From IMG/VR virus record IMGVR_UViG_3300049794_000047: 64,000 nt of DNA. One strand, written 5' to 3'. The notes below the pieces were generated by a model. The model was not told where the DNA came from, did no database searches, and was given only the letters and a program-made list of their open reading frames with translations. Of the stretch, positions 11,971 to 40,697 are shown in pieces (the first letter of the stretch is position 1; each line of letters starts with the position of its first letter). Position numbers and translations under genes: made by a program. Origin of the DNA: a virus (lineage: Duplodnaviria; Caudoviricetes).

Positions 11971-12771
11971 ATGACAGCTTACGACCCCACCGCGATTGAA
12001 CGGCTGATCGCCGAGGCACGCGAGGACGTCGCACGAATGCTCGGTGGCAGGTGGTCCACGGTCGGCAGCGGCTCGATCCTGGAGATCGAATCCTCGGAAT
12101 TGCACCCCGATGGTGACAACATCGGCGTCGCCGAGGATCTGCGCTCCGAGGACGCGCTTGGCATCGCCCGCACCCGCAACAACCTTGCGGCCATGGCCGA
12201 CCAACTCGAGGCCGCGCACGCGGAGGTCACGCATCTGAAACGACGCGATCTGTTTCGTCGCGACTGCGAGTGGTTCATCGCCACGGATCCGCAACCGTGG
12301 CGCTTCGGTCAGCTGGACTTTCCAAGGTGCGCGAATCGCGCGAATTGCGTCGGGGAGACGCTGCCGCGGCGCTCCCAGTACATCCTGTGTCGTGAACATG
12401 CTGAGCAATGGGACGGCGACCTCGTGGCGATGTCGGGTGAGCCCGTGGCAATTCCGAAGCAGGTGCACGACGCTGCCGCTGCTGCCGCTGCCGCTGCCGC
12501 TGCCGCTGCTGCCGCTGCCGCTGCCGCCGCTGCTGCCGCTGCCGCCGCCGCTACCGCCGCCGCCGCTCGCGACGCAACGGAGCTCCGCATCGCGGCTAAA
12601 CTCGGGCTATCGCCAACCGCGACACAGGGCGAGATCGCGGAGGCTGTGGAAGCGGTGGTGGCGGAACGGAATGCCGCGCAAACGTACATCTCCGAGCTAC
12701 AACACGCCGCCAAGACGGTGATTGACAACTCGCTCGGTTGTGTGGCCACACGCGTGTCAAAGGGCGGGTGA
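11971..12771 (+). CDS. hypothetical protein with poly-Ala tract
   Basis: ORF with a 32-codon GCT/GCC run. Confidence 0.65.
   Translation: MTAYDPTAIERLIAEAREDVARMLGGRWSTVGSGSILEIESSELHPDGDNIGVAEDLRSEDALGIARTRNNLAAMADQLEAAHAEVTHLKRRDLFRRDCEWFIATDPQPWRFGQLDFPRCANRANCVGETLPRRSQYILCREHAEQWDGDLVAMSGEPVAIPKQVHDAAAAAAAAAAAAAAAAAAAAAAAAAAATAAAARDATELRIAAKLGLSPTATQGEIAEAVEAVVAERNAAQTYISELQHAAKTVIDNSLGCVATRVSKGG
12472..12567 (+). repeat. (GCT/GCC)n trinucleotide tract
   Basis: 96 bp, encodes A27-T-A4. Confidence 0.95.
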
Positions 12772-12870
12772 CCGGCTACCCGTATCGGGTGTCGACCTAC
12801 CCAGGAACGAAAAATGTCCCCTTGCACCACCGTGCCGGTGGCGTGCAAGATGCATTCATCAGCCGTGATG
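12766..12870 (+). promoter_or_regulatory. promoter cassette P1 (two GGGT-N8-ACCC boxes + sigma54-like core)
   Basis: boxes 12766-81 and 12787-802; TGGCGTGCAAGATGC at 12839; ATG 12868. Confidence 0.7.
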
Positions 12871-13281
12871 AAGATCAACGTGCACGTCCGATGGGAAGTC
12901 TGGATTGGGGAGTGGAAATACCTCATGGAGAGCCTCATGGAGAGCCCTCGCGACGCAAATAGCCTCAATGAGCTCCCGCAACTCCGCTGGCGCTTCAATG
13001 CCTGCTTTGACGAGCGCAGCAAGGCAGAGTCCGAGAGCCACTGGTATCGAAAGCAGGGCTACTCAAATGTCGACATTCGCTGTCGGACCACGCAGTACCA
13101 GGCGCGACGTCACGTCACGTCACCACGGGCTAGCATGACCTATCAAGGCACGTCCTGGGTACCCTGGCACCCGTGTCTCAAGAGAAACACACGGACGTAC
13201 GATCCGTGGACGGCCAGAGACGGGTGGTGGCTTACCCAGGGACGAAAGACGGCCCCTTACATCACTGAGCCTGTGGCGTGA
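12868..13281 (+). CDS. hypothetical protein
   Basis: ATG 28 nt after the P1 GG. Confidence 0.5.
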   Translation: MKINVHVRWEVWIGEWKYLMESLMESPRDANSLNELPQLRWRFNACFDERSKAESESHWYRKQGYSNVDIRCRTTQYQARRHVTSPRASMTYQGTSWVPWHPCLKRNTRTYDPWTARDGWWLTQGRKTAPYITEPVA

Positions 13282-13499
13282 AAGATGCACTGTTTGTCAG
13301 ACATGCTAAGGATCAACTGGACCGGGGGAGGCGCTCTCTTGCGCCTAACCTCTGGGGACCATTGCGACTGGGCCTATTGCGGTGGTGGTCCGAGCTTCCG
13401 GAACGTCAAGCGAACGCACTTCGTTGCGGCGATCGAGTCACTGCTTGGGTGGGATCATCCGGCCGCGCAGGAGGCCCGTGACTTCTGTAAGCGTGCCAA

Positions 13500-14051
13500 A
13501 TGAGTGACGTACGAAAGGTTCACACGGAGGTTGACGGCGTCATCTATCGTGGACGGCGATCTGTTCACATGTCTGGCAACAGGGTCTGGATCGATGGACA
13601 AGAGGTCGGTGTCGAGGTCGACAACAACGGCGAGGGCACGCCCTGCACGATTCGCTACCTCACGGGTGTTGAGATTCCTTCCCCGCCCGATCACGCGACC
13701 GAGGCCGAGCACATCCGTGACAACTTCGAGGGCTCTCTCGATAAGTACAAGGCGAAGGCGCGCACGTACCGCAAGAAGATCGAGGATCTCACAAGCAAGC
13801 TCTCGGATAAGGCCCGGAAGGAGATCCAAAGCGCGCTCGACGTCATCGAAGATCAGCTCGCGAATAACGTACCGTTCGTGGTGAAACAGTTCCAGGAAGC
13901 CACGTCACGAATCACCAGTGCTGCCAAGGCTGAGGTCGACGCGTTCGTCACGGGAGTGGTGCGTGCCGCAGGTCTTGAAGCGATCGCAGGGGGCAAGCTG
14001 CCGTCGCTCTTGTCAAGTGGCGAGAGCAACGATCACAACGTCAAGCCGTGA
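13500..14051 (+). CDS. hypothetical helical protein
   Basis: 183 aa; a degenerate copy of its 3' end lies at about 16995-17050. Confidence 0.7.
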   Translation: MSDVRKVHTEVDGVIYRGRRSVHMSGNRVWIDGQEVGVEVDNNGEGTPCTIRYLTGVEIPSPPDHATEAEHIRDNFEGSLDKYKAKARTYRKKIEDLTSKLSDKARKEIQSALDVIEDQLANNVPFVVKQFQEATSRITSAAKAEVDAFVTGVVRAAGLEAIAGGKLPSLLSSGESNDHNVKP

Positions 14052-14136
14052 ACCGCAAGCTCGCGAGCCCCGCGCGCCACACTTGCTGAAGTCAAGGAGC
14101 GCGTGAAGCAACAAACGCCTCGATGAGGTAACTTCC

Positions 14137-14478
14137 ATGCAGAAAAAGCAGACCAATAGCCAGAGCGCAACGAGGCTCTCTCATGCACTCGCCCTCAAGG
14201 CGGCCGGTCCTATCGTGGACAACGCACTAGCGCGCTCTGCCGCGAAGCCTGAGGCGTTCGCCGATTCGTTCACCACACTCGACGCAGGCTTCTCCGTCGA
14301 GGTCAAGGACCCTTGGGGTGAGGTGACCGAGGACATTGAGGTCAAGATCGATTGCGGCGGCATGATCCACGGCGACGAAGACCTGATCGACGTCCTGATC
14401 GAGATGCTCGAAAAGGCAAAGGAAAATCTCATCGCGAGGCGCGGCCCACTAACACGCAAGCGCTTGGATGCGCTGTGA
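14137..14478 (+). CDS. hypothetical protein
   Basis: RBS-like GAGG upstream; 113 aa. Confidence 0.6.
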   Translation: MQKKQTNSQSATRLSHALALKAAGPIVDNALARSAAKPEAFADSFTTLDAGFSVEVKDPWGEVTEDIEVKIDCGGMIHGDEDLIDVLIEMLEKAKENLIARRGPLTRKRLDAL

Positions 14479-16222
14479 GGCGTGCGCCAAAACGCGCCGG
14501 CACTGGTGTGCACGTCAGCGCGCCTTCCCGTGCGACGATCCCGCCGTCCCGTGCGACGATCCCGCGCATCGACGACGTCACCTACAAGTTGCTCAAGGCC
14601 TCGCCGGAGGCGGTGGCGGTGCGCACTCGCGCGATCGAGTGGAAGGAGGCGGCCGACAAGGATGGCCCAGACCACTCACCGGGATGTAGCCACGAGCGTG
14701 AGGCAGCACGTGCGCATCGACGTTTCATGCAGGCTGCCTACGAATATGGTCTCGCCGTGCAACGCCGTGGCAAGGAGCACATGCACCTGTGGGCGCGTCC
14801 CGGCGAGTTGGTTGACTTCATGCCGCTGTCCCGCGAAGCGCAGGCTTGGATTCGTGAACACGGATGGGAGGGCAAGGCGATCATGGTCCAGTTCTGGTGC
14901 GAGCGACTCACGGTGCGGTCACCGCGCGATCGTCGTCGGAAACGTACGTTCGGTCCGCGCGAGGCCACCTGGGCCTCAATCGACAGCGAAACGGAAAAAG
15001 TCCGGTACGAGCGAGCGATCGGTCTGCGCCGAGACACGTGGAGCAAGGCCGAGTAGCCTGTGGTGCTGGACCGACAGCTTTTCCGAAGCCCCGACCCACG
15101 ACGTCGTGATACAGGTCTACACGGCGCTATCAGAGCAGCGCGCGTCAACCAATATCGAAAAGACAGACCGCCGGCAAGGATCGTCTGCACGAAGTTACGC
15201 TCAACAAAACAGGAAACAAACCGCATGAATGACATTGCAACGGCCGACATGACTTTGTTTGACAGCCGCCCTACTAGAGCCGAGGCATGTCCTCAATGTC
15301 GCGGGCATGGAAGCGTCAGTGTCGGATACGCGCTCCACCCGTCAAGCGACCCAATCAATGGGACCCCCAAGGGCGCCATCCATGCGTTTGTGGGTGGATC
15401 GTTCGACGTGTTCTATGCGGCCAGGGAGGCCGCGAAGCTTGCCGTGCGAGCCCGCCGACCCGTGGCCTTCCAATGCCTCGACTACGTCGTCGTCATCAAC
15501 CCAGGCAACGATCCCGATCAGGTGGCTCGTGCCTGGTGGCTCCAGCAATACGGTGAGACACCCGAGGCGACGTGGGCTCGACGATGACACGGCACCCCTG
15601 CTTAACGGTGCACGACGTCGATCGCAACGCTGGACAGCCGCGTGCTGTCGGAGGGGGGCCGTGCGCGATGACTGCGAGCTACTTCGCGCTGGACAACCGG
15701 GCACACCGCGGTCATCTGTGCTGGCATTGCTGGAGAGAGTTGCCGCCCCCAGAGCGAGATCTATACAGCGGACGTGCGTAGCCTCGGACAACCGTGTGAT
15801 GAAAAGCAAAACGGTAACTTCAAGTAAGACCTCGGCCAGGAAACTCCAGCAACACCGCCGTGTCCTGAGCCGCTCGATGGCTGCCAAGATCATCCTCGAT
15901 CTGGAGCCGCAGTATGCAGACACGGTCACCGCGCGGACCCTGCGAGCTGCCCGTGTGCTGACGACGAACTTCGCCGTCAAGCGCGATATCTGCGACGCGC
16001 TCAGTACAGTGATCGTGGCTGAGCAAACGGGTCACTGGGGGTCGCCCAATGACCAGGCTCCAAAGTGTGTGTGGCAGGCCTGCATCGCCATCTGGAGGCT
16101 GCAGCGGGACCTCACGACAGACCCTCCTGATTCAAGGGTGGCCAAGGCGCCACGCTACTCTACCCCGAAGGCCAGCCCCCACTGATCCATCTCTCCAGCA
16201 CGATCCGCGCCCGTGCAGAGAC

Positions 16223-16307
16223 GGGTGCCGACCTACCCAGGAAAGTCCCCAGAGCACTTACGCGAAGGGCACAATCGGCACACACATTGCTTTTACCTCG
16301 GAGCATG
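16223..16307 (+). promoter_or_regulatory. promoter cassette P2
   Basis: GGGT-gccgacct-ACCC at 16223; CACTTAC at 16255; CGGCACACACATTGCT at 16276; ATG 16305. Confidence 0.75.
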
Positions 16308-16601
16308 AAGGAACCTGTCATGATGAATATTCCGCCGCGCATCGGCCAGCGCGTCGGCTTCACGCGCCACGATCATCCAAATGTACCCCCAGGCCGCGGC
16401 GGTATGATTGACCAGGTTGGATCGGACAATCAGTTCGTGGTCATGATCGACGGTGGTGGATTCTTTGGCTGGACCGCATTCGACAGCTGGGAGTTCACTG
16501 GTGAGCCTGATGTGGTTCTCAATCCCGAATACGTCGTCATGCGGACGCAGGCGCTGTGCGACGACAGTACGATTAAGCCGATCGGGCGGAAGCCAGGATG
16601 A
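16305..16601 (+). CDS. hypothetical protein (MKEPV start)
   Basis: follows P2; coupled to next ORF. Confidence 0.6.
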   Translation: MKEPVMMNIPPRIGQRVGFTRHDHPNVPPGRGGMIDQVGSDNQFVVMIDGGGFFGWTAFDSWEFTGEPDVVLNPEYVVMRTQALCDDSTIKPIGRKPG

Positions 16602-16951
16602 GCCCTGCAGAAGACCGCCTGCTCAGCTTCGTGGCCACGCGCCTCGAAAGCATGCTGCGCCGGCCTGCCATCTGGGGCTCGCTATTCTCCGTGGAAGAAC
16701 GGATCCTGCAACTCTTGGAGTTGCGGCGAGTGCTCCTGGCCCCTTCATTTTCAGCGGACGATACGCACCAGCTCCTGCGGTCGTACTCGCGGTTCATCTC
16801 CGAAACCCTGGAGGATGCCACCGTGGAACCCCTCGCCACGCAACTCGAACAGCGAGGGCGGGCAGCCGAATTTCCCGCGCTCATGAAGAAGTTCATCGAG
16901 CGCGAGCGCGCAGAGTTCCTTGCCGACGCGGTGACCTTGCCGACGCGGTGA
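16598..16951 (+). CDS. hypothetical protein
   Basis: coupled ORF, 117 aa. Confidence 0.6.
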   Translation: MSPAEDRLLSFVATRLESMLRRPAIWGSLFSVEERILQLLELRRVLLAPSFSADDTHQLLRSYSRFISETLEDATVEPLATQLEQRGRAAEFPALMKKFIERERAEFLADAVTLPTR

Positions 16952-17105
16952 CCAAAAACCAACCAATGCCCCAGGAACAAAGAAAAGGTTCGTGAGCGCC
17001 GCAGGTCTCGAAGCCACTCATAGCGGGCAAGCTGCCGTCACTGTTGTCGAACGCCCCGTGCACTGTTCAAAATTCCAACCGTAGCCCCAAGGAGAAACAG
17101 CCTTT

Positions 17106-17504
17106 ATGAGTATAGACTGGAGCGCCTACGCCGTCATCGGCTGCGAGGTCACCGGAAAGCTGATCCAGAAGATCCGCAGCCCTGGTTGCAAGCATAACAA
17201 ACCCAGCGGCTCGCCCTTCTGTGCACAGTGCGGCCTGCCCTCGAGCGTGATCGAGGAAATTCCAATCGCGGGATACGATCGGGACGCAGCCAAGATCGGC
17301 ACTTTCTCCGTCGTTGGCACGTCTGACGATCGCCGTCAGTTCGTAGGCTTCATGGTTGGTGCTGGTGATTTTGACCAGGCCCGCATGCGTCCTCTCCCCG
17401 ACTTCACCGAGATCAAGACCGCCCTGTGCGCTGTCCTTGAACCGCTGGGGCTCTGGACCGAAGAGTCCTTCGGCCTGTGGTCTATCCTCTGCTGCTTATG
17501 TTAA
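17106..17504 (+). CDS. hypothetical Cys-containing protein
   Basis: AGGAG RBS; CKH...CAQCG. Confidence 0.65.
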   Translation: MSIDWSAYAVIGCEVTGKLIQKIRSPGCKHNKPSGSPFCAQCGLPSSVIEEIPIAGYDRDAAKIGTFSVVGTSDDRRQFVGFMVGAGDFDQARMRPLPDFTEIKTALCAVLEPLGLWTEESFGLWSILCCLC

Positions 17505-17535
17505 GGACACCCAGTGATCATCGACGCTCAAGCCC

Positions 17536-17684
17536 GAGTGATCTGATACCCCGTGTCCCGAGCACCACGTTCCCAGCTTGACCTGCGCCCGTGCGGAGAC
17601 GGGTGACACCCTACCCAGGAGCGACCCTCAAGCACTTACATGAATGCGCGCCCGGCACACGAGTTGCTTTAGCCTAGGAACATG
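17536..17684 (+). promoter_or_regulatory. promoter cassette P3
   Basis: boxes at 17536 (GAGT) and 17601; CACTTAC at 17633; CGGCACACGAGTTGCT at 17653; ATG 17682. Confidence 0.75.
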
Positions 17685-18287
17685 AAGGAACCTGTTGTGC
17701 TGACGACCTGTACCGAGACCTCGCTCGTGCTCGTCATGTTCAAGTTCTCGTCCGATGACGACCAGTTCCGCGCGCGCCTGTTCGACGCAATCCTCAGCGA
17801 CAGGTGCCCGGACTTCGAGTGCTCTCTGGGCAGCCCGAGCGGGACTGGGCACAGCTGCACCGCCCTGTGGCGACCGGAGCACGCGGACGCGGTCCGCGCC
17901 TGGGCGCGATCCATCGGCATCCACGTCACCAGCGACGCCCCCAGCGACAGCACCCCCGGCGTTCCCCATTTCCAGGGAGGACCCCGCAACGTCTCTGCCG
18001 GCGCTACCCGTATCCAGGGAGGACCCCGCGACGTCACCGCCGACGCTACCCGTATCCAGGGAAGACCCCGCGACGTCTCCGTCGGCGCTCCCCGTATCCA
18101 GGGAGGACCCAGCAATGTCACCGCCGACGCTACCCGTATCCAGGGAGAACCCCACGGTCGTGAGGGGGTCGCAACCCACATCAAACTGCCCGACATCGGC
18201 GACATCGCACCCGGAGGCGTGGTCGCCCCGTGTATCGCCGACGTCGAGCGCATGCTCGTCGACCGGCGCGCGAAGGGGACACTGTAG
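17682..18287 (+). CDS. hypothetical protein with 14-aa repeats (MKEPV start)
   Basis: QGGPRxVxAxATRI x4. Confidence 0.65.
   Translation: MKEPVVLTTCTETSLVLVMFKFSSDDDQFRARLFDAILSDRCPDFECSLGSPSGTGHSCTALWRPEHADAVRAWARSIGIHVTSDAPSDSTPGVPHFQGGPRNVSAGATRIQGGPRDVTADATRIQGRPRDVSVGAPRIQGGPSNVTADATRIQGEPHGREGVATHIKLPDIGDIAPGGVVAPCIADVERMLVDRRAKGTL
17964..18152 (+). repeat. 42-bp tandem repeat, about 4.5 copies
   Basis: unit includes GCTACCCGTATCCAGGG. Confidence 0.9.
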
Positions 18288-18289
18288 CC

Positions 18290-19075
18290 ATGATCACCGC
18301 ATTCAAAGTATTTACCCACGACCTTCGCCTCCCCGTTCAGGGCGGCGGGGCGCCTATCTGGTCGGGCACACTACCCTATGTGCTGCCCCGTGACGAGGCT
18401 GGGTGGCTTGCATGCGGAACGCCCCAGGACGCGCTATGCTTCTCGGGACTCTGGCCCAACGGTCGGCCTTCGCGACTGTTCGTCGTCGAGACCAGCGCGC
18501 CGATCATCAAGCACGACGACAGGTTGCGCGCAGATACGTGGACGCTCATTGATGAAATGGTGGTCGACGACACGGTCCGCGCGCTGTCCCGGAAATGGCT
18601 CGGCGTACACGCGGACGTCATGGCACGCGAGCAATTGGCGTGGCACGCTGCGCTACTGCGGCCGACCCGCAACGTCACGGCCGTCGAGCAGGGCCTCAGA
18701 CAGGCACTCGAGACACGCGGGCTGCCCTGGCAGTTGAAGCTCTTCAATACCACCAGGGACGCTTGGAACGCCAGGACCGGCTGGAACACCTGGGCCGCCT
18801 GGAACGCCTCGGCCGCCAAAATTACCTGGGCCACCAGGACCACCAGGGCCACCAGGGACGCCTGGGGCGCCTGGGACGCCTGGCACGTCACGGCCGCCTG
18901 GGACGCCTCGGCCGCCTGGGACGCACTGATCCACTACTACGCGGCGACGATGAGCTGGGTACCAGGACCCACGGACCTGTTCACCGTTGGGCTTCGTGAG
19001 GCCTACACCGCGGGCCTCGCCGTCGCGTTGCCCACGAGACCGAATGAGCTCGGTTGGGCGATGGAGGGCGTGTAG
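18290..19075 (+). CDS. hypothetical protein with AWD/AAW tripeptide repeats
   Basis: DAW/AAW/DAS 9-bp repeats at about 18750-18925. Confidence 0.7.
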   Translation: MITAFKVFTHDLRLPVQGGGAPIWSGTLPYVLPRDEAGWLACGTPQDALCFSGLWPNGRPSRLFVVETSAPIIKHDDRLRADTWTLIDEMVVDDTVRALSRKWLGVHADVMAREQLAWHAALLRPTRNVTAVEQGLRQALETRGLPWQLKLFNTTRDAWNARTGWNTWAAWNASAAKITWATRTTRATRDAWGAWDAWHVTAAWDASAAWDALIHYYAATMSWVPGPTDLFTVGLREAYTAGLAVALPTRPNELGWAMEGV

Positions 19076-19505
19076 TGCGCCCGCCCTACCGAATCACCGA
19101 AGTCGTGTCCGGCACGTCGCGGCACGCGAACTGGCGAGACATCCTCACCAAGCACGGCACGCGCTTCATCGACGAGGCGCTCCGCGACAATCCCGACGGC
19201 CCGGTCGCGATGGTCACGACCCGGTACGCGACCGAGATCGACTACCGGGTCATCGTCGGCGAGCTGACCGATGGTGACCACGGTAAGGCGCGTGTCATCT
19301 GGGATCGCTCGGTCTCGTTCGGCGCGACAGATGCACGCGTGGCCGGAGGCTCGGACTTCGTTGCCGCGGCACGGGCGCAGGATGAGGTGGCGTTTGCGGC
19401 ACATGCACTGTTGAATGCTGTGGAGGTCGATGGTGAGTTACCCGAGGCACCACGCGAACTACAGGCGCTGGCCGACTGGTTCGAGGGCGCACGCCAGGAA
19501 AAGCC

Positions 19506-20033
19506 ATGACCACCCGACCGATCACAAGTGCTCCACTGGAGAAGATTATGGTCAGCACCGAGGTTCCTCTCACGTTTCGCATCTTCAAAGACAACCAACT
19601 ACTCCGCGAGGAGCGGTTATCGCTGCGTGTGATCAAGCTCGGCAAGGTCGCCTCGGCACACCTCAAGTTCGACGACGAGGCCGTGAACCGAATGCACGCG
19701 TTCATCGAGGTCAACGGTCCTGGTGACATTACCATCATCGACCTCGGCTCGACCAAGGGCACGTTCGTCAACGGCCAGAAGGTCATCAAGGCCAAACTGC
19801 GGTCGGGCGACATGATCAGGATCGGCGAGACCTGGATCGAGCTCGTGATCGACACCGGCGAGGAATTGTCGAGAGAAGCCGCAACCATTGCTGGATTCCC
19901 CGACCTCCATGTCACCGACGGAGCAATCGGCATCCGCACGAGTCAGATCGCCAAGCCCGTCCACCTCCGCACGCTCACGGTCAGTGGGAAGGGCAACGTG
20001 GGCATCGACCTCGACGACGGAGACGCCAAGTGA
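19506..20033 (+). CDS. FHA-domain protein resembling the N-terminus of myxobacterial GltG-type gliding proteins
   Basis: VPLTFRIFK...VIKLGKVASAHL...RMHAFIEV...IIDLGSTKGTFVNG. Confidence 0.8.
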   Translation: MTTRPITSAPLEKIMVSTEVPLTFRIFKDNQLLREERLSLRVIKLGKVASAHLKFDDEAVNRMHAFIEVNGPGDITIIDLGSTKGTFVNGQKVIKAKLRSGDMIRIGETWIELVIDTGEELSREAATIAGFPDLHVTDGAIGIRTSQIAKPVHLRTLTVSGKGNVGIDLDDGDAK

Positions 20034-20049
20034 ACAAGCGCGGAGCAGC

Positions 20050-20100
20050 CTGCGGCTGCGGCTGCGGCTGCGGCTGCGGCTGCGGCTGCGGCTGCGGCTG
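20050..20100 (+). repeat. (CTGCGG)8.5 microsatellite
   Basis: perfect hexamer run. Confidence 0.95.
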
Positions 20101-20693
20101 GGAGGCCATTCCCACGGCGAGGTCGTCGTGATCGCCACAGGCCAAATCTGCCGCGACCTTGCGCGCAAGACGTACAAGATCGCCATCGTACTCGGACCCT
20201 CGCGCAAGGGAGACAAACTCCGCGTCTGCCGTTGGCAGCCGTCGTTGGGCGAGTCAGCTGATGGTCGCTGGAGCGCGCCCCTCGCGCTATTCGAGCACCT
20301 GCTCGAGCCGCTTCCACCGGACTTCGACCTGACCTCACGCCGTGGACTTGTCGTCGCTGCAGCGAAGCGGTCGATCGTCAACGGCCTCGTGCGCTGGCAA
20401 GTAGGTTCACGCTTCAGCGGCGCCAAGCTGACCGAGGTGCACGACGTCGGGACGGTGCGCCCGTGACGACTTACCAGGCCAACGGTAACGCTCCCAAGGT
20501 GATCACCGCCGTAACGATCACGAACGAACAGATCCACTGCGTTCGCAAGACCATGCTGGGCGTGCCGCGAAAACCTCGTTTCACCGCGCGATTCTCAAGA
20601 ACTGCGGTCCAGAGCAACGGGCGTGGCCGCCCCCCCCCCCGACCATCGCTGCAACAACGCCCTGATCCTCTTCACCTCGAGTCAAACCTCACC

Positions 20694-21539: not shown

Positions 21540-21624
21540 GGGCTGGAACGAAATAACCTGGTCATTTCGGGTGAATCCTCGTCGGAAAATCGGTCAAATG
21601 GCCAAGTTAATAAAGTCCAGCCCC
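21539..21624 (-). mobile_element. 86-bp MITE copy 4
   Basis: TTA duplication at 21536-38 / 21625-27. Confidence 0.9.
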
Positions 21625-29941: not shown

Positions 29942-30002
29942 TAAAACAGCACCTCCAGTGAGACTGGTGGCTCCAACGTAAACAGCCGCTCAAGAGTCCC
30001 GC

Positions 30003-32072: not shown

Positions 32073-32484
32073 CGTCGTGCAACGTGTCAAAACCTCGCGA
32101 CGGAGGCTCGAGCGTGCTCTCCTCACAATCGCCGAAAATTGGAAGCTCTACGGAAGCAACGTCGCCGATTACAAGACGCTCGGCCCCATTGAGGGCCACG
32201 CGCATGAACTAGCACACACTCTCGATCTCGGACCCGACTTCGAGACCAGGATCGACGGCATGGGGGCTGACGAGGCCAATTCACATGAGGCGGCAGCCCT
32301 TCGCATCGAGGTAGCGGCGCTGGCGAGACTCGGCGTCTACTTGTCGATGCGTCGTCTCTGGGCGTCCGCGAAGTGGGAAGATTCCAACGGAATTCCGGGG
32401 CTTGCTCAATTGCGAATGACCCTGAATCAGCATGAACGAAACTGCGTGAGACGCTTCGTGACCATGGTTACCCACGAGATTTAA
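32062..32484 (+). CDS. HExxH-motif protein, paralog of 24217..24690
   Basis: EGHAHELAHTL...ANSHEAAALRIEV. Confidence 0.7.
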   Translation: MVTDVVQRVKTSRRRLERALLTIAENWKLYGSNVADYKTLGPIEGHAHELAHTLDLGPDFETRIDGMGADEANSHEAAALRIEVAALARLGVYLSMRRLWASAKWEDSNGIPGLAQLRMTLNQHERNCVRRFVTMVTHEI

Positions 32485-32787
32485 CATGACCCGAGAAGAC
32501 TCCATCCGCTCCAAGACGTGGGTGACCGATGACGGCCGCTACCTAACCGTCGACGAAATCACCGACGATCATCTGCACAACATCCGCCTCATGCTTTGCG
32601 CCGGCATAACACCTGGATATGACCAGACCGCGGGCCGTGAGATCGCCCGCGCCCGTGCGGCACGTCGCGAGAATTTGCTGGACTACACCATCGACGGCAC
32701 ATGGGCAGAACTTGATCAGGACATGTATGCCGCTGCATGGCTCCAGATCATCGACGACGAGCTCGCCCAACGCCAAGAAGACGTCGC

Positions 32788-33270
32788 ATGATCGGATACT
32801 CCGAGCGGAACTATTTTTCATCCCCGTCCGTCGCGGCGTACCGACAAGCGTGCGCCCTCGTCGATCGGGTATCGAGCCACACCTCGAGTGACGGCTGTGA
32901 ACTTCGATGTCATGAGCTCGCTCGCGCGGTTGCTCAGCGCCTCGTCATGAGTGGTTTCACAGCGGAGGTGGTCGATGGTAAAATGTGGTGGATCGATCAC
33001 ACTTGGATCTTGCTGTCAGGCCAGGAAGACGCAGCACTACTCGACGTCTATGTCCCGGGGCGAATTCCGCAAGTGCAGCTGATCCACGACCATTCATCGG
33101 TATCTCGTGGGTACGAACGATGGGCACGACCTCGTACGGACATTCGGCACGCCGTGGTTGACGAACTGATCCTCTTGATGGCTTACAAGAACGACATCGA
33201 CGAGAAAATCGTCGTCACGGATCAAGAGTTGATCGGCAAGCACGCAGTCCTCAATGAAGGCAAGCGGTGA
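32788..33270 (+). CDS. hypothetical protein
   Basis: CHELARAV...HTWI...LLDVY, a possible Cys/His/Asp triad. Confidence 0.55.
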   Translation: MIGYSERNYFSSPSVAAYRQACALVDRVSSHTSSDGCELRCHELARAVAQRLVMSGFTAEVVDGKMWWIDHTWILLSGQEDAALLDVYVPGRIPQVQLIHDHSSVSRGYERWARPRTDIRHAVVDELILLMAYKNDIDEKIVVTDQELIGKHAVLNEGKR

Positions 33271-33965
33271 TGAGTCGGTTCGCAGAAGCCCTTTCCACGG
33301 GCCAATTGACGTTCGCGAGTAACATGGTCGCCCAGAAGCACCACGTGGTGCGTCTGCGTTACAGTGCATTCGATGATGACGTTGAAGCTTTGAGCAAGTC
33401 CCTCTCCAAGACGAAGCGAACGGTGAAGATCACCGAGATCGACTCCGAACGTCGTGGTCTGTGGAGTGCGACCGGACTCTGCGGCGTTCACGGCGATCAA
33501 GTTACCTTCGGCAACCGTTCGCGCTACTCCTGGCGCCCGCTGCAAAACCCGAGTCTGGAGACTGTGTGCAAGGGTTGCCTACGCGCGTGGAAGAAGCTCG
33601 GAGAGCCCGAGATCGCTGGCTGGGATCGCAGCGCGCATCCCCAAGACGCCTGGCCGTGGAATCTGCCGTTTGGCTGGCGCGACGTTCCCGCCGAGGGACA
33701 CCCGTGGGATGTGCCGGCAAACACGTCGGTCGAGAGCGTCAAGGACAAAACGGGCGCCATTGTCGGAGAGCACCGCATCGAGTTGCGTCGCTGGGTGCGA
33801 GGTCCGCGCATCATCCGACTCGTCCACCACGTCGACACGGACATCTACGCAGCGAGGTGCTGGCGATCAGACGTCGAGCCAGACGACGAGCGGTGCGCGA
33901 TCCAGGGCACGTTGCAGCACGCCAGGCAGGCGTGTCAAAAATTGATGGCCCAAGGAGGTTACTAG
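33267..33965 (+). CDS. hypothetical protein
   Basis: coupled 232 aa ORF. Confidence 0.65.
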   Translation: MMSRFAEALSTGQLTFASNMVAQKHHVVRLRYSAFDDDVEALSKSLSKTKRTVKITEIDSERRGLWSATGLCGVHGDQVTFGNRSRYSWRPLQNPSLETVCKGCLRAWKKLGEPEIAGWDRSAHPQDAWPWNLPFGWRDVPAEGHPWDVPANTSVESVKDKTGAIVGEHRIELRRWVRGPRIIRLVHHVDTDIYAARCWRSDVEPDDERCAIQGTLQHARQACQKLMAQGGY

Positions 33966-33993
33966 GACCCATGCTTGCCCCGATTAACATGCC

Positions 33994-34404
33994 ATGAGTG
34001 ATCAATATCCACCTTTCGTGGTCAAGCGTTCCGATGGTTTCGTCGGTGTTGAGTTGAGCGTTTCTGATCAGCTAACACCGTTGGAAGCGCGTAAGCTTGC
34101 GGAGCAACTCCTAATCTCCGCGCGCGCCGCAGAGGACGATGACTATCGCGACCCCACGGAAGCCTGCGGCTGGATCGTGTGGGAGCGCGCGACCGACGGT
34201 GAACGTCCTCATATCCGCGCCATTGACCTGTCGGAACAACAGGCCCACACGCACGTCGCGTACCTCAAGGCCGAGGCCAGGATGCAACGCCCATCGAAAC
34301 CAGAACCAGACCTGCTCATTGAAGAAACACGCCTCGATCATCTCTATGCTGCCGCACTGCTGGAGGCACTTCAGAAGCGCGGCACGAAACAGCGCGGAGA
34401 GTGA
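33994..34404 (+). CDS. hypothetical protein
   Basis: coupled to the AAA gene. Confidence 0.6.
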   Translation: MSDQYPPFVVKRSDGFVGVELSVSDQLTPLEARKLAEQLLISARAAEDDDYRDPTEACGWIVWERATDGERPHIRAIDLSEQQAHTHVAYLKAEARMQRPSKPEPDLLIEETRLDHLYAAALLEALQKRGTKQRGE

Positions 34405-36167
34405 CTGTGCAGATCACGATCAAGAGCCGAATCGCGCAAAAGCTGCGCTCCGATGTCGAAGCGTTCCAGAAGATGGAACTGGGCTGGGACGAAGACGCGG
34501 GTGAGCACAAGCACCGCGCCGTTGACCTCGATCTTGGCAAGCTGACGCGCGCGGAATGTGGAAAGTTGCGTGACATCTTCCACACGTCCGGGATCCAGGG
34601 CACGCGCGCCCTCGCCGCGGACATCACGAAGTACCTGCGCGCAGCCCAGGAGGGCGTCGAGAAGATGACGGCGCGCGTCGTGCGCCAGGCGGCGTGGATG
34701 TTGGAGTTCTTCTTCGCGCACCTGCCTCACCACATGATGTTCTCCAAAGACGAATATGAAGGCGGATCCTACGCTGGCTACTACATCGAGGACGTTGCGT
34801 ATCGCGAGCGTCAGGATCACGGTCGAGGCAGCGTGATACCAGAGCACGTCGTCGTCGACTTGCTGTGGATCGACAAGGACACGCGGCGGTCGGAACACCT
34901 GAACTGGTACGCCGAGGATGTGCTCGGCATGTCGCCCGTCGAGATGCTTCAGGGACAGGGCTGCGTCGCCGAGACACCAGACCTGATGGAGCGCCTCCGC
35001 GTCGAGACCGAGTTGTATTACGAGACACGCGACAAGGTCGGCAAAAAGTACACGGCGCGCGGCCTGGCGAAGGACGATCTTGACGACGCTGCCGAGCGGG
35101 CCACCGAGTCCATGTACGGGTGGAGCCAATCTTCTAAGTCGAAGGTCCTTCGCATGGACCTGTTCGGGGTGGAAACACCCGTTGTGATCGACATCCTGTT
35201 CGAGAAGGACGACAAGGAGAACAGCCGAAGCAACGGCAGCGGCAGCGTGAACCTCTACCGCTGGCACCCCTGGAACATGCGCTTCCATTCCCCGAGCGAG
35301 GATGACCTCGCGCGGCACCTGGAGGCTGACGAGGACACGGACTTCGCCCCCGAGTTGCAGTTGCCCGTGCACCCGTTGGTCCCCTGTTTCGACTTGAAAC
35401 GCCACGCACGGCTGCGCGTGCACGTGAACAACCTCACCGAGTACGTGTACCGTCCCGAGGTCGCGAGCGGACTGGTGATCCCAGAGCGTGATCGCGCCTT
35501 GATCGACCTCCTGGTCGATCAATCATCCAACAACTTCCAGGACGTCGTCGAAGGCAAGGGTCAGTCGATGAACATCCTGTCTGGTGGAGTGGCAGGGACC
35601 GGGAAGACACTCACCGCCGAGGTGTTCGCGGAGTTCAAGGGTCGACCCCTGTACAACGTTCAATGCAGCCAACTCGGCCTCAACCCAGAGCAGGTCGAGC
35701 AGAACCTGGGAATCGTGTTGCAGCGAGCGAACCGCTGGAGCGCGATCCTGCTTCTCGACGAGGCCGACGTATACATCCGCCGGCGCGGCGACGACCTCAT
35801 GCGCAACGCGATCGTCGGCGTATTCTTGCGTGTTCTTGAATACGCGCAGTGCATCTTGTTCATGACCACGAACCTCGCCGGTGATGTCGACGACGCGATC
35901 GCATCGCGATGCATCGTCAAGATCAGCTACGACCTCCCTAGCGCAGACGCCCAGCACAAGATCTGGCGCGCGCTCGCCGACCTGAACCGCATCGACCTGC
36001 CGGAAGACACGATCACCGCATTTGTTGCGGCGCACCCACGCATCAGCGGGCGTGACGTCAAGAACCTGCTCAAGCTTGCGTCGTTCGTCTCGGCACGAGA
36101 CGGTAGATCCGTCGACCTCCAGACGCTGGAGTTCGCGCTTGAATACAAGCCCACAGCGGTCGTGTAA
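34401..36167 (+). CDS. AAA+ ATPase
   Basis: GVAGTGKT, ILLLDEAD, ILFMTTN, DDAIASR; no GAFTGA motif. Confidence 0.9.
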   Translation: MTVQITIKSRIAQKLRSDVEAFQKMELGWDEDAGEHKHRAVDLDLGKLTRAECGKLRDIFHTSGIQGTRALAADITKYLRAAQEGVEKMTARVVRQAAWMLEFFFAHLPHHMMFSKDEYEGGSYAGYYIEDVAYRERQDHGRGSVIPEHVVVDLLWIDKDTRRSEHLNWYAEDVLGMSPVEMLQGQGCVAETPDLMERLRVETELYYETRDKVGKKYTARGLAKDDLDDAAERATESMYGWSQSSKSKVLRMDLFGVETPVVIDILFEKDDKENSRSNGSGSVNLYRWHPWNMRFHSPSEDDLARHLEADEDTDFAPELQLPVHPLVPCFDLKRHARLRVHVNNLTEYVYRPEVASGLVIPERDRALIDLLVDQSSNNFQDVVEGKGQSMNILSGGVAGTGKTLTAEVFAEFKGRPLYNVQCSQLGLNPEQVEQNLGIVLQRANRWSAILLLDEADVYIRRRGDDLMRNAIVGVFLRVLEYAQCILFMTTNLAGDVDDAIASRCIVKISYDLPSADAQHKIWRALADLNRIDLPEDTITAFVAAHPRISGRDVKNLLKLASFVSARDGRSVDLQTLEFALEYKPTAVV

Positions 36168-36212
36168 GCTGCGCGCGCTCTTTCACCCCAGAGGACGTCA
36201 TGATCAAGCTAA

Positions 36213-36298
36213 TGGGCTGGAACGAAATAACCTGGTCATTTCGGGTGGATCTTCGTCCGAAAATCTGGTAAATGACCAAGTTAATAAAGTCCAGCCCC
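36213..36298 (-). mobile_element. 86-bp MITE copy 7
   Basis: TAA duplication; one terminal G-to-T change. Confidence 0.9.
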
Positions 36299-36613
36299 TA
36301 ACTTGGTCATTTTGAAGAGGCGAGTGATCATGAATGACAAAGAATCCCTCCCGATCGATCGCCCCGCGAAGGAACGAACGGGCACCAGACCACGGTCGTT
36401 CTCCACAACCACGTCCACTGTCACACCGCGCGTCAGGCAGAGGGCGGCGACTGCGGCACGCGCTTCGAGGCCCGCTGCTCGTGCGGCTGGGAGTAGGGAG
36501 CCAGCAGCCGCGCCGCGGCCGACGCGATCGCTGTCGGACACCGCGGCTACTCGCCGGATGCCGCGGTCATCGTCACTTCGGACATCCCCCAGCCTCGGAA
36601 ATCAGTGGAAGCC

Positions 36614-37198
36614 ATGATCGGCGACCCGAACCATTTGGCCTTTGAAATCACGTGGCCCGCCCAAGAGCCCGTAGCCGTGCAGGGTCTCGGCTGGGGGGAC
36701 CTCGTCGTGTGGTTCTCGGGGTGCGCCCTATGGGCAGCAGGTACACAAGCCCAGCCGGTAGCGTGGACCTGGATCGATCTCGTCGAGCACTTGGCACGCG
36801 CCTGGGGCCCTTTACTGTACGAAGAGCTCTACCCGTATGGGCTCGTCGCGATCGGCCCCGAAGCGTTACGAACGCGTACCCTGCTCACAAGCGTGACCGG
36901 AAAGACCGCGAACGAGGTTGAGGACGCCGTGCATGCGTTCCAGCAACGCCACGACCTCGCTGCCGGGCTTAAGGGTCTCGCGCTTCCGCCGATCTGGCTC
37001 GTGCGCGAGGGGGCGCTGATGCGGATACGCGCAGAGGGGCAGGACCTGTGGCGGCCCTGTAACGAGGTACTGACAACACTCACCCGCTTCGTTGAGGAAG
37101 TCCGCACACGGACTGGCACACAGGGGGCGCGTGCCAAGAACGCCTTCGAGCGGTGGGACGCGCGGATGTCGCACGGAGAACTGTGGTCTCCCAGGTAA
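36614..37198 (+). CDS. hypothetical protein
   Basis: ORF ends within the distal box of P6. Confidence 0.6.
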   Translation: MIGDPNHLAFEITWPAQEPVAVQGLGWGDLVVWFSGCALWAAGTQAQPVAWTWIDLVEHLARAWGPLLYEELYPYGLVAIGPEALRTRTLLTSVTGKTANEVEDAVHAFQQRHDLAAGLKGLALPPIWLVREGALMRIRAEGQDLWRPCNEVLTTLTRFVEEVRTRTGTQGARAKNAFERWDARMSHGELWSPR

Positions 37199-37331
37199 CT
37201 GGCTACCCAGTATCTCGAAGACACCACCCTCGTGTACTGCCAGACACCGGGTGATCCACCACCCAAGGGGACCTGACAAAGACTTGCGCCTGCCTTCGTT
37301 CGGCATATCCCATGCACTAACGGAGAACATG
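37193..37331 (+). promoter_or_regulatory. promoter cassette P6
   Basis: boxes at 37193 (AGGT) and 37249; GACTTGC at 37281; CGGCATATCCCATGCA at 37301; ATG 37329. Confidence 0.7.
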
Positions 37332-37552
37332 ATGACATCCACGATCAAGGAGATCCCCGCGAGCGCCGACACGCCCGCCGATCAACCCTGCAAGACCTGG
37401 CACGTGTCCTACAGGCTGACCTCAAAGTCCCCGGTCCTGCCGATCAGTGACACGTCTTGCTCGCTGGATGAGGCCGTCCTGGAGTTCCAGGCCTGGCGGT
37501 CAGCGAACGGCATCGGGGACTATTACTCGGTCACCTTCGAGGAGGTCTAAGG

Positions 37553-37849
37553 GTGGTGGTCGTCACTCCGCTCCACGCGCACTACTCGCCAGCCCACCTG
37601 GATTACGTGATTGAGCAGATGCGACGGCTTGGACCTCCCAAGATCCGCGCTTACTTCGACGCGGTATCAGGGGCCTGGATGGCTCGGGAAGGTACACCCC
37701 GTCTACGCGCCGCGAAGCTGCTCGACCTTCCGCCGGTCATGGTCCCGGTGCGCTGGCCGCACTCACACAAGGCCCTAGATCGCGCTAGATTCGCAGCGCT
37801 CCTGAGGGGCCACGCCTTTGAGAGGGTCGACGTGACCAATCCAGTATAG
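37553..37849 (+). CDS. ParB N-terminal-like small protein
   Basis: MRRLGPPKIRA...WMAREGTPRLRAA, compare the xGxHRLxAA motif. Confidence 0.5.
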   Translation: MVVVTPLHAHYSPAHLDYVIEQMRRLGPPKIRAYFDAVSGAWMAREGTPRLRAAKLLDLPPVMVPVRWPHSHKALDRARFAALLRGHAFERVDVTNPV

Positions 37850-38584
37850 CCCTAGAAGGAGAAGGCCTGACCACGAAGTGCACTGCCAGAAATGGCACGC
37901 TGAATGAACAACGCGCCGCCAAGCAGGGAACCTGAACATGAGCAACAACCTCCGATGCGACCTGTGTCATATAGGGTTCCGATCCTTCGATACCATTTAC
38001 GAGTCACCCGTGTTCGGTGACCGTGGCGGCGTGTTCCATGTGGAGTGCGCGGAGCACGTCGAGGCAATCATCAGGGAAGAAGGGACGAACGCTATTGCAC
38101 ACATTCTGTACCCGGGTCGCAGAACTGCAGACGAGAAGACCAAGTAGCCATGCTCAAGCCCTCAGACAGCAAGCACAGCGACGAAGGGACAGCCTTCGCC
38201 CGCTGCTCTCGCTGCGGCCTCCCCGACGGCCGCCACATCGGCTACCACGACGCCCACGAGCTCCCCATCAAGCGGGGCCAGCGCGTCCGCGTCAGGGCTG
38301 GGGCCATCCTACACGCCACGTTGCCCCGCCCGTCCAAGCGAACCATGGTGAACAAGCGGTCCCGGGTGGTCACCGCCCTCAGCATCCACCATGGGCTGTC
38401 CGCGCACGTGGGGTACGATGACAACATGAAGAGCCTCTGGCACCCCATCGACGAGCCCCAGGTGTGCTGGCCCGGTGCTGGCGGGTACTGGCACTACGCC
38501 AACATGTCGGACTGTGCGGGGGTACCGTGATCCTGAGAGCCCCGCCTTCGAGACCGTGGTCTGCGCATGGGCTAATGGACTGCC

Positions 38585-38723
38585 AGGTGGCTGGCTACCC
38601 AGTATCCTGGAGACGCCACCCCCGTGTACCCCCAGCCACCGGGTATCTAGTTACTCGGTAGACCTGACGAGAACTTGCACTTGCCTTCGCCCGGCACGCT
38701 TCATGTATAAGGTGACGGTTATG
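38585..38723 (+). promoter_or_regulatory. promoter cassette P7
   Basis: boxes at 38585 and 38641; AACTTGC at 38672; CGGCACGCTTCATGTA at 38692; ATG 38721. Confidence 0.7.
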
Positions 38724-39024
38724 GCCAAGTACTCACACGAAGAATGCCTCGCACTTGCACGCTTGGTACTGACCGACTGCAATAACGCCGTGGGTCCTGC
38801 GGTTGGCCGGTTGCGTGCCATACGGCGGGGCCCCCAGTGAAGGCACTCACTAACGACGAGATCCTCGATGTGCGCGACGGCCGCATCCGCAGGAAAAGCG
38901 ACGGCATCAACGCCCGCGACGGACGAGACGTACACGATGGGTGCGTGTACCCCACAGGCCAAAAGTGCCGAGGTGCTGATCGTTGTCAGTTTCCCTCGCG
39001 ATGCGCCCGCAATGGAGGCACCCC

Positions 39025-39390
39025 ATGACCGACGCCTACCTCATCGTTGACGACCGCGAGGATCACAACTGGAAATACCGCCTGTCCTGGTATTTTCCCG
39101 ACGACGCTGACATCGGCGGCAGCCTCGGCGATTCCGTCTTTACCGAAGCGGACCTGAAAACGATCGACACGAGCGATGTTGACAGCGTGCTCGCCTACCT
39201 GGCAGTTTCCAAGCTGAAGGATGTCCAAAAGGACCACGGAGGCTTCTACTGGGAAACACAAAGAGCTGCACAGGCGGCGTTGCGCATCGCCAAAACCGCG
39301 ATTGCAGTCGGCGCCGAACGGTCAATGCCGGACTGGGCGAAACAGGCGCTCGCCGCTGGGTGGAAGGCCCCGAAGGGATGGAAGCCGTGA
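39025..39390 (+). CDS. hypothetical protein
   Basis: GGAGG RBS; ends WAKQALAAGWKAP. Confidence 0.7.
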   Translation: MTDAYLIVDDREDHNWKYRLSWYFPDDADIGGSLGDSVFTEADLKTIDTSDVDSVLAYLAVSKLKDVQKDHGGFYWETQRAAQAALRIAKTAIAVGAERSMPDWAKQALAAGWKAPKGWKP

Positions 39391-39415
39391 GCCGTCTCGT
39401 GGATTCTCAAACACC

Positions 39416-39970
39416 ATGATCCTCATCGTGCACGGCGGTCAGACGGGCGTCGATCGCGGAGCTCACGAGGCCGCCCTCAACAACGGCTGGTTGATTGCGG
39501 GCTACATGCCTCGCGACGGACGCGATGAGCTCGGCAAAATCCCGGAGGGCGTTGCACGGTTCCTCGCGCCGCACGACAAACCGGGCCTCGCGGCACGCAC
39601 CGAGGCCAACGTACGTGCAGCTGCCGCGGCACTGATCATTGTGAGGGATATGAACGACCCCCGTGTTACGCCCGGCACTGCCAAGACGATCGACCTAGCA
39701 GCCACCCGACGCCTGCCACGGCTGATCGTCGATCCAACAACGGACACGATGCAGATCGCGCACTGGATCTGGAATAGCCAGCGTGTGTTCGGCACGTTGT
39801 TCCTGCCACTCATGGCTCCACCTGGCGATTCGCTTGGATCGATCCCGACGAGACTCCTCGTCGCCGGGCCCCGCGAGAGCAAGTGGCCGGGCGCGCGTGC
39901 CGAAACAACGGCACTGCTCCATAGGGTCGCTGACGCCCTCACAGCGCTTCCCCGGGCAGCCAAAACATAA
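39416..39970 (+). CDS. SLOG-superfamily protein (putative molybdenum carrier/YpsA-like)
   Basis: IVHGGQTGVDRGA, RTEANV, VAGPRESK. Confidence 0.8.
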   Translation: MILIVHGGQTGVDRGAHEAALNNGWLIAGYMPRDGRDELGKIPEGVARFLAPHDKPGLAARTEANVRAAAAALIIVRDMNDPRVTPGTAKTIDLAATRRLPRLIVDPTTDTMQIAHWIWNSQRVFGTLFLPLMAPPGDSLGSIPTRLLVAGPRESKWPGARAETTALLHRVADALTALPRAAKT

Positions 39971-40049
39971 CGCAAACTGCCGCCGCCACCCCGCCGCGGT
40001 GGTAGGATCGACCAATGGCGCCCCCTCACTTCAAGACGAGCCTGCTACG

Positions 40050-40526
40050 ATGACCCACGTCGAAGCCGATAACTTGATCGCGACACTCCCCAAACCGGGG
40101 GGGCTGCGACTCTTCCGTGAGGACGATCGAATCGTGATGGACGGTGGCAAGTTTGGCCCGCACACGCTCAGCGCCAAGGTCTCAAGCGCCGAGCGCCTGC
40201 TCGTGCACTGGAAAGGCTACGTCGAGAACCAGGGGCTTACCCTCGGTCCTGGTTACACGGCCGAGCGCCCAGCACCTGCGCTCATCCCACACCTCAAGAG
40301 CTCAGAGCGCGACTACGAGCCCGGTGACAAGATCGCGTTCAGCTCACCAAGCTACTCAGGAAAAGGCGATCACGGTTGGCGGCCGGGCGTCGTTGTGCGC
40401 GCGACGCCCAAGCGCGTGCTTGTCGAGTACTCGTTCAAGTACGACCTCGAGCAAGCCAAGAAGACCGGCAAAGAGCCGCGCCGTCACGAGATTTGGAAGA
40501 AACGCACCGAGGTACAAAAGCGCTGA
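40050..40526 (+). CDS. hypothetical protein
   Basis: YEPGDKI...WRPGVVV SH3-like C-terminus. Confidence 0.6.
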   Translation: MTHVEADNLIATLPKPGGLRLFREDDRIVMDGGKFGPHTLSAKVSSAERLLVHWKGYVENQGLTLGPGYTAERPAPALIPHLKSSERDYEPGDKIAFSSPSYSGKGDHGWRPGVVVRATPKRVLVEYSFKYDLEQAKKTGKEPRRHEIWKKRTEVQKR

Positions 40527-40558
40527 TCAACACATCCTTCGCTCGTGTCGAGGCTGCC

Positions 40559-40697
40559 AGGGGGCTGGTTACCCAGTATCCCGAAGACGCCACCGCCGTG
40601 TACCCCCAGTCCCTGGGCAGCTAGTTACCCGGTAGACTTGACGAGAACTTGCACGCGCATTCACTTGGCACGCCTCATGTATAAGGTGACTGTTATG
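40559..40697 (+). promoter_or_regulatory. promoter cassette P8 (near-duplicate of P7)
   Basis: boxes at 40559 and 40615; AACTTGC at 40646; TGGCACGCCTCATGTA at 40666; ATG 40695. Confidence 0.7.

Follow-up and report, generated by a model that had tools for sequence, protein, structure and literature searches.

The 64,000-nt window analysed here, a stretch of the IMG/VR virus record IMGVR_UViG_3300049794_000047 (Caudoviricetes), has a G+C content of 62%, and from ~0.6 to 41 kb nearly all of its genes lie on the + strand. Along this gene array stand repeated copies of a composite promoter cassette, each made of one or two GGGT-N8-ACCC dyads, an (A/C)CTTRC box, a core with a GG and a downstream TGC or TGT, and a start codon. 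A sequence-only reading of the window had described eight of these cassettes, and we found all eight at the GG positions it gave and with the features it listed. The count itself has to be raised to nine, as an additional copy, P1b, has its GG at 13275 and overlaps the 3' end of the open reading frame (ORF) behind P1 (12868-13281). The cassette is a real feature of this DNA, and every copy ends at the start codon of the gene that leads the train behind it (Table 1).

Table 1. Promoter cassettes of the window, the gene trains behind them and a cassette of a related contig (positions in the L006 row are those of that contig)
Feature	Span	Strand	Dyads	Box	Core	ATG	Remarks
P1	12766..12870	+	12766-12781, 12787-12802 (both exact)	CCTTGC 12820	GGCGTGCAAGATGC 12840-12853	12868	model score 57.9 bits
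P1b	13157..13305	+	13157-13172, 13222-13237 (exact)	CCTTAC 13255	GGCGTGAAAGATGC 13275-13288	13303	
P2	16223..16307	+	proximal 16223-16238 (exact)	ACTTAC 16256	GGCACACACATTGC 16277-16290	16305	
P3	17536..17684	+	distal 17536-17551 (1 mismatch), proximal 17601-17616 (exact)	ACTTAC 17634	GGCACACGAGTTGC 17654-17667	17682	
P4	26619..26760	+	distal 26619-26634 (exact), proximal 26672-26687 (GGCT, 1 mismatch)	ACTTAC 26705	GGCACGCAAACTGC 26726-26739	26758	ATG offset 32
P5	28537..28684	+	28537-28552, 28601-28616 (exact)	ACTTAC 28634	GGCACGCGAGCTGC 28655-28668	28682	
P6	37193..37331	+	distal 37193-37208 (AGGT, 1 mismatch), proximal 37249-37264 (exact)	ACTTGC 37282	GGCATATCCCATGC 37302-37315	37329	
P7	38585..38723	+	distal 38585-38600 (1 mismatch), proximal 38641-38656 (ACTC, 1 mismatch)	ACTTGC 38673	GGCACGCTTCATGT 38693-38706	38721	GT replacing GC
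P8	40615..40697	+	proximal 40615-40630 (GGGC, 1 mismatch)	ACTTGC 40647	GGCACGCCTCATGT 40667-40680	40695	GT replacing GC
Putative regulon cargo	12868..41135	+					~60 co-oriented, mostly orphan genes; nine trains, one behind each cassette (from gene layout and few family matches)
L006 cassette			10185, 10241	ACTTAG	GGCACGCCCCCTGC at 10295	at offset 28	

The distances between the parts are held within narrow limits. As had been claimed, the proximal dyad begins 52-54 nt before the GG, exact in P1, P2, P3, P5 and P6 and with a single mismatch in P4, P7 and P8. Distal dyads with no or one mismatch are present in 7/9 sites, located 21, 53-56 or 64-65 bp upstream of the proximal dyad, a dyad-to-dyad spacing of about 2, 5 or 6 helical turns. 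The (A/C)CTTRC box begins 20-21 nt before the GG. The core reads GGCAC-N6-TGC in P2-P5, with the small deviations already reported at P1 (GGCGT), P6 (GGCAT) and P7/P8 (TGT); over all nine copies, GGCAC is found in six, GGCGT in two and GGCAT in one. The claimed ATG offset of 27-28 nt after the GG held for seven of the eight sites first noted, P4 being the one that differs.

From the nine window sites we built a covariance model that uses sequence only, and its scan of the window returned exactly nine matches, all on the + strand. A chance test independent of this model searched both strands for a core with a dyad (<=1 mismatch) 48-59 nt upstream, in the window and in 300 first-order Markov shuffles of it. 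This relaxed composite was observed 9 times, on the coding strand only, versus a mean of 0.15 (maximum 2) in the shuffles, and exact dyads were observed 10 times versus 0.8. A comparison with shuffled sequence had been named beforehand among the tests able to refute the promoter reading, and the excess is plain. A perfect TGGCACGGCGATTGC is also located at 42975-42988 (+), without dyads or an ACTT box, where a PAPS-reductase-like gene on the minus strand has its 5' end; with ~0.15 sites of this kind expected at random in the window, it can probably be put down to chance.

The proteins that lead the trains are mutually unrelated, except for the P7/P8 pair. The first few codons are common to the P2 and P3 genes, and likewise to the P1 and P1b genes, which indicates that the cassette reaches a few codons into the gene. 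The first ORF of P7 (38721-38840) encodes a 39-aa truncated paralogue of the 146-aa product of the P8 gene (40695-41135); the two share 85% identity over 34 aa, and the pair reflects a duplication of cassette plus gene start followed by decay of one copy.

Beyond the window, the covariance model found the cassette in only two related soil contigs, L006 and L162, with 4 cassettes in 33.8 kb. L006 (Ga0307497_10000089) is one of the soil contigs that share a two-gene AAA module with the window, and L162 is a 45-kb contig of small orphan genes with three cassettes in the 21 kb examined, one of them orthologous to P1b, with 80% identity across 273 nt. An ATG offset of 27-28 is found in 8/9 window sites and in two of these four cassettes. 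Both contigs encode a sigma-54 activator that has no N-terminal sensor domain. The L006 protein (356 aa) is encoded directly after the AAA module and consists of PF00158 (E 1.2e-62), AAA_lid_14 and a Fis-type HTH_8, while the L162 protein (P0005, 336 aa) is 78% identical to it and likewise sensor-less. These 336-356-aa proteins thus join PF00158 to a DNA-binding helix-turn-helix (HTH), the pairing by which, along with a GAFTGA loop, enhancer-binding proteins are recognised.

The sigma-54 consensus is TGGCAC-N5-TTGCT (PMC12316311). In the cassettes, the GG-N10-G spacing is invariant in all nine window sites and in the 4 sites of the relatives, the C of the GC is present in 7/9 window sites, and TGC is followed by A/T in 7/9. 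Conservation between core and ATG is concentrated at offsets 0-4 (GGCAC) and 11-17 (TGC and a short T/A-rich run). When the transcription start is taken as 12 nt after the C (offset 25), these blocks fall at -25/-21 and -14/-11, which is the sigma-54 geometry, and a purine is found at offset 25 in 8/9 sites, compatible with this predicted start.

Taken together, these results support the proposal of the sequence-only reading that the cassettes form a coordinated sigma-54-type regulon gated by a dyad-binding protein: the GG-N10-GC spacing is rigid, TGC(A/T) recurs, the paired dyads are phased and the copies are co-oriented with the genes. Independent support comes from L006 and L162, where cassettes and a gene for a sensor-less sigma-54 enhancer-binding protein occur together. 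We consider it likely that the nine cassettes are promoters of the enhancer-dependent sigma-54 (-24/-12) type and that each of them starts a co-oriented accessory gene train on a very large mobile element of soil Kofleriaceae (Myxococcota). The element is probably a huge phage.

We hypothesize that a closed complex of host RNA polymerase and sigma-54 waits on GGCAC-N6-TGC(A/T). The GGGT-N8-ACCC dyads, whose centres would lie near -70 and near -92, -125 or -136 from the predicted start, on the same helix face, would be bound by a dimeric activator with a Fis-type HTH, which would then assemble its AAA+ ring and open the promoter. This activator is most likely encoded by the element itself and would derive from the FHA-type sigma-54 activators of the host, the sensor domain having been lost and the DNA-reading helix kept. 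The regulon would consequently fire once the activator is made, not upon a host signal. The predicted start of transcription is offset 25, ~12 nt past the GC, which leaves 2-3 nt up to the ATG and would give almost leaderless mRNAs; it is the fixed ATG offset, kept in L006 and in the L162a cassette, that suggests so short a leader. Genomes of Polyangia have a median of ~78 sigma-54 activators each, and rpoN is essential in Myxococcus (PMC12316311).

The nearest relatives of the short activator, with 62-79% identity over ~90% of its length, are proteins of ~600 aa that begin with FHA domains. Several of them carry the NCBI label Kofleriaceae, and the gene of one adjoins that of a large Ser/Thr kinase, in the context of a bacterial chromosome. 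In a maximum-likelihood tree, arbitrarily rooted and with a long branch for P0001, the short forms (P0001, P0005, P0011, P0014, P0094 and P0002) make up one clade with a Shimodaira-Hasegawa-like approximate likelihood ratio test (SH-aLRT) support of 93, nested in a group of long FHA forms and Kofleriaceae-labelled proteins. The sigma-54-contact loop is GAFSGA in the element forms and in the FHA-type homologues, and their HTH is almost identical. In P0119 and P0103, two short forms encoded on chromosomes, the loop is degenerate and the context is a different, bacterial one. The simplest reading of these comparisons would be that a host activator was captured once and lost its FHA sensor. More tentatively, we suggest that a huge phage of Kofleriaceae, or a giant phage-like element of this family, took the catalytic and DNA-binding parts of an FHA-type activator and dropped the signal domain, and that the always-on copy fires the element's own sigma-54 promoters genome-wide to yield nearly leaderless mRNAs; this fuller scenario is possible, and we advance it with reserve.

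Several observations count against assigning the cassettes to sigma-54. The T preceding the GG, at -26, is normally well conserved and is found in 4/9 sites only; P7 and P8 carry GT, whereas nearly all sigma-54 promoters carry GC; and P1, P1b and P6 deviate from GGCAC. The proximal dyad is unusually near, 36-38 bp from the GG, and no IHF-like site is present in the cassettes, its place being taken by the strongly conserved ACTTRC box near -46, which, as a guess, could be a site of bending or of an accessory protein. Shine-Dalgarno-like GGAG/AAGGTG runs at offsets 16-26 in 5-6 sites lie upstream of or across the predicted start and would suit an earlier start site better. These runs put the near-leaderless reading under tension, as do the in-frame downstream starts with AAGGA at P2 (ATG at 16320, where AAGGA forms a Shine-Dalgarno sequence) and P3 (GTG at 17697). 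Neither an activator nor an rpoN gene was found among the proteins of the window, its six frames contain no GAFTGA-type motif, and the loop of the relatives' activator is GAFSGA, not GAFTGA. Furthermore, exact dyads in the relatives also sit directly upstream of sigma-70-like leaderless promoters: at L162:3166-3260 an exact GGGT-N8-ACCC dyad precedes GATAGGAT (twice) and then N7-ATG, and at L006:6570-6690 one precedes TGTACAAT. The dyad binder therefore need not be the activator. Judging from these arrangements, the dyad may act at promoters of more than one class within this family of elements, in which case either a separate regulator would bind it or the activator would also repress the sigma-70 promoters that it overlaps.

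The distribution of the cassette adds points to both sides, those against first. L166 and L164, contigs with a short activator of the same and of another clade, respectively, contain no cassette in the ~9 kb scanned of each, an absence that is unsurprising because 36 kb of the window itself is cassette-free. The composite was not enriched in five Myxococcota genomes with 56-59% identical activator orthologues (3 matches versus 4 in the reversed control), and no dyads were found beside the host FHA activator genes examined. In favour of a specific co-occurrence of cassette and activator gene, the covariance model found no cassette in ~299 kb of other loci, comprising module-sharing contigs, pattern hits in species genomes, the bacterial contexts of related activators and phage-like contigs sharing a phiTE_072-family gene. 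Among these, the module-sharing soil contigs L001-L005, L007 and L008 have only the two-gene AAA module in common with the window and carry no cassette, and neither do the contigs with the phiTE_072-family gene. In IMG/VR, the strict cassette pattern gave 0 matches and a loose pattern single matches only, mostly by chance; the IMG/VR contigs with 37-49% identical (generic) activator homologues have no cassette and at most one exact dyad, and no relative of the window AAA protein was found there. Megablast of 18 kb of the window versus GenBank phages gave no match, and the window sequence had no match in the IMG/VR set searched, the JGI contig set or the species genomes. A search of the activator against 50,697 GenBank phage records returned 66 matches, all below 60% identity; among the matches listed, the records are unannotated or bacteria-like. 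The strict pattern had 13 matches in species genomes, none of which resembles the full cassette. At three of these loci (L131, L136 and L142; Cystobacter fuscus and Archangium), an operon for polysaccharide export (Wza/Wzz/tyrosine kinase) is preceded by a conserved TTGGCACAGCCCCTGCTTA promoter, which has a single GGGTAGCGCGTAACCC dyad 53 nt upstream and is likely to be a chromosomal sigma-54 promoter with the same dyad type.

The main rival to the sigma-54 assignment is a promoter of a sigma-70-family factor, for example one of the extracytoplasmic function (ECF) type, of the host or of the element. The ACTT(R)C would then be the -35 and GGCAC the -10 located 14-15 nt later, transcription would start near the TGC and give a 15-18-nt leader with a GGAG-like ribosome site, and the dyad would be a class-I-type activator site or a repressor site. 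In favour of this account, the box is conserved as strongly as the GG and TG, and its distance from the GG varies by 1 nt, like -35/-10 spacers; in P7 and P8 it reads GAACTT, similar to ECF -35 boxes. The Shine-Dalgarno-like runs would fall within such an mRNA, and L006 encodes a zf-HC2 anti-sigma-type protein. However, this account leaves the invariant TGC(A/T) at exactly GG+12 and the fixed ATG offset unexplained. ECF-sigma promoters are recognised by a -35 AAC, a -10 CGT, a ~16-nt spacer and a cognate sigma gene, a set that was not found here: AAC is present in two of the nine sites only (P7/P8), CGT in the supposed -10 only in P1/P1b, GGCAC is no known ECF -10, and the 90 window proteins gave no sigma-70-family match with E < about 5e-5. 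Both cassette-bearing relatives, moreover, encode a sigma-54-specific activator instead. We regard the ECF-like account as unlikely.

A partial alternative accepts the core as a sigma-54 promoter and takes the dyads for operators of a separate small HTH or ribbon-helix-helix regulator of the element, a repressor or co-regulator acting at several promoter classes. The window encodes several HTH proteins (HTH_17, MarR_2, HTH_3 and NikA-like), the proximal dyad lies nearer to the core than most enhancer sites do, and the dyads before the sigma-70-like leaderless promoters of the relatives (L162:3166, L006:6570) would find a ready explanation. On the other hand, a dyad centred at -70 is clear of the sigma-54 footprint, so repression from there would be awkward; 16-bp dyads that come in pairs and in helical phase are a typical form of activator site; and the cassettes co-occur with the activator gene. 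That activator may itself repress the sigma-70 promoters that it overlaps, just as NtrC represses glnAp1, the sigma-70 promoter that it overlaps. To this division of labour between two proteins we assign a small probability. A more distant thought is that the repeats are mobile or recombination-related sequences between genes (attC-, REPIN- or MITE-like) and not promoters. They are indeed numerous, dispersed and bounded by palindromes, and the subfamilies P1/P1b/L162a and P6/P7/P8 look like duplicates. Yet every copy has the orientation of the genes, stops at a fixed distance from the start codon and extends into the first codons, and their spacers diverge between copies while the motif blocks stay fixed; neither target duplications nor terminal repeats were seen. 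We consider this origin very improbable.

A further candidate, a sigma-70 reading of the cassettes, was rejected: there is no consistent TAnnnT 6-7 nt before the ATG, and no conserved -35-type block stands 17 bp upstream of any -10-type hexamer. No sigma-70-type signal accounts for the + strand gene array either: in simple scans, that strand showed no consensus promoter of this type at 12-31 kb and a single one at 32956, and it lacked intrinsic terminators from 12 to 41 kb.

Recognisable families are few among the cargo: an AAA_21 ATPase, the two-gene AAA module, an FHA-only protein and one protein whose near-identical homologue bears the phage family PF26211. P3 leads the longest train, which extends up to about 26535 and includes the FHA-only protein (175 aa, 19506-20033, +; PF00498 E 6e-17, Yop-YscD_cpl). 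Compared with the FHA domains of host-type FHA activators, this protein shows 34-40% identity, and it might disturb host kinase-to-activator signalling. The P3 train also contains a GC-rich satellite at 24767-25167 (+), built of the 9-nt units GCCCGTATC, GCCGTATTG and GCCCGGCGT in frame with a 612-aa ORF. A 99% identical homologue of this ORF (448 aa) begins only after the satellite, which may be a Pro/Gly/Val-rich N-terminal extension or non-coding. The P5 train (28682-37198) contains the AAA_21 ATPase and the module of a 231-aa protein and an AAA protein of 586 aa (33270-36167, +), which has weak IetA/TRIP13-like matches. The module recurs in eight soil metagenome contigs at 55-89% identity with unrelated flanks, and looks like a mobile, defence-like module. 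In L006, beside the activator (L006:3849-6410), are genes for a 5-hydroxymethyldeoxyuridine (5-hmdU) DNA kinase (PF18723), a Mom-family protein (PF25680) and the zf-HC2 anti-sigma-type protein. The first two are phage-type DNA modification functions and point to DNA hypermodification; the last hints at possible tampering with host ECF sigma control.

The cassette-bearing region stops at an IS1595-family insertion sequence, whose transposase gene (41154-42188, -) directly follows the last cassette train; a DDE_Tnp_1 + SWIM transposase is encoded farther downstream (51403-52722, -). Between them, a full-length DnaJ (43880-45010, +) has a J domain, a zinc-finger centre and a C-terminal domain. 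A complete myxophage with Cas12m and DnaJ, MV-1, has been described in a preprint that has no promoter analysis (bioRxiv 10.64898/2026.09.14.751636). The window proteins scanned include no capsid, portal, terminase or tail families; the phage-associated families are accessory ones only, namely a phiTE_072-type domain (on the near-identical homologue P0121), phrog_424 and an excisionase-like HTH. Since these 64 kb are part of a much larger genome, the missing structural genes do not exclude a virus, and the assignment to a virus leans in part on the description of MV-1.

Our literature search yielded no account of an enhancer-binding protein encoded by a phage or of a sigma-54 regulon that spans a virus, and nothing for the spelling of the dyad. 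New here are the ninth copy, the shuffle control, the phasing of the dyads, the related cassettes and the element-borne sensor-less activator of Kofleriaceae origin. If the fuller scenario given above is true, this element would provide the first case of a virus that encodes an enhancer-binding protein and has a sigma-54 regulon across its genome, and a sensor-less activator with the same enhancer-promoter cassette before dozens of genes would be a new mode of timing the expression of a viral or mobile element. Further gains would be an activator/promoter pair, compact and orthogonal, for use in hosts of high GC, a natural test case for whether leaderless translation can be supplied from sigma-54 promoters, and a host link (Kofleriaceae) for an uncultured giant element.

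In its working, the proposed system resembles Mu Mor/C and P2 Ogr, in which one phage activator switches on a set of middle or late promoters: one element-made activator would serve many copies of one promoter type as a temporal class. The Mu and P2 proteins act on the sigma-70 holoenzyme without an ATPase and are not of the same family as the putative sigma-54 system. Phages are known to redirect host transcription through sigma-70-family factors, appropriators or polymerases of their own. Sigma-54 use by phages is barely documented, the precedent being one sigma-54-like promoter region of Pseudomonas phage YuA (Ceyssens et al. 2008, as cited in PMC10914365). Host sigma-54 would there too be used for part of phage transcription, while the cited passage mentions no phage-encoded activator, shared enhancer dyads or genome-wide cassette.

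Among activators, the closest parallels are the sensor-less PspF of E. coli and HrpR/HrpS of Pseudomonas syringae, since the relatives' activator likewise consists of the sigma-54 AAA+ domain, lid and HTH only; by analogy, it should be active unless restrained in trans. It differs from them in lying on phage-like contigs, in deriving from FHA-type Kofleriaceae activators and in its GAFSGA loop, and no PspA- or HrpV-like inhibitor was identified for it. Among promoters, the cassettes are best compared with the classical sigma-54 promoters glnAp2 (NtrC), nifH (NifA) and pspA (PspF), with which, from their sequence, they appear to share the spacing and the enhancer-site features of the class: a rigid -24 GG/-12 GC core, two upstream dyads on the same helix face as candidate activator sites and, as the putative partner, an AAA+ activator with a C-terminal Fis-type HTH. 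The consensus flanks agree only in part. In contrast to the classical promoters, the sites of the cassettes are much nearer (centres at about -70 and -92 to -136), the T at -26 is usually missing and the ACTTRC box replaces the IHF site, the start codon comes 2-3 nt after the predicted start, and nine or more copies are found on one mobile or viral element, where they would drive orphan genes.

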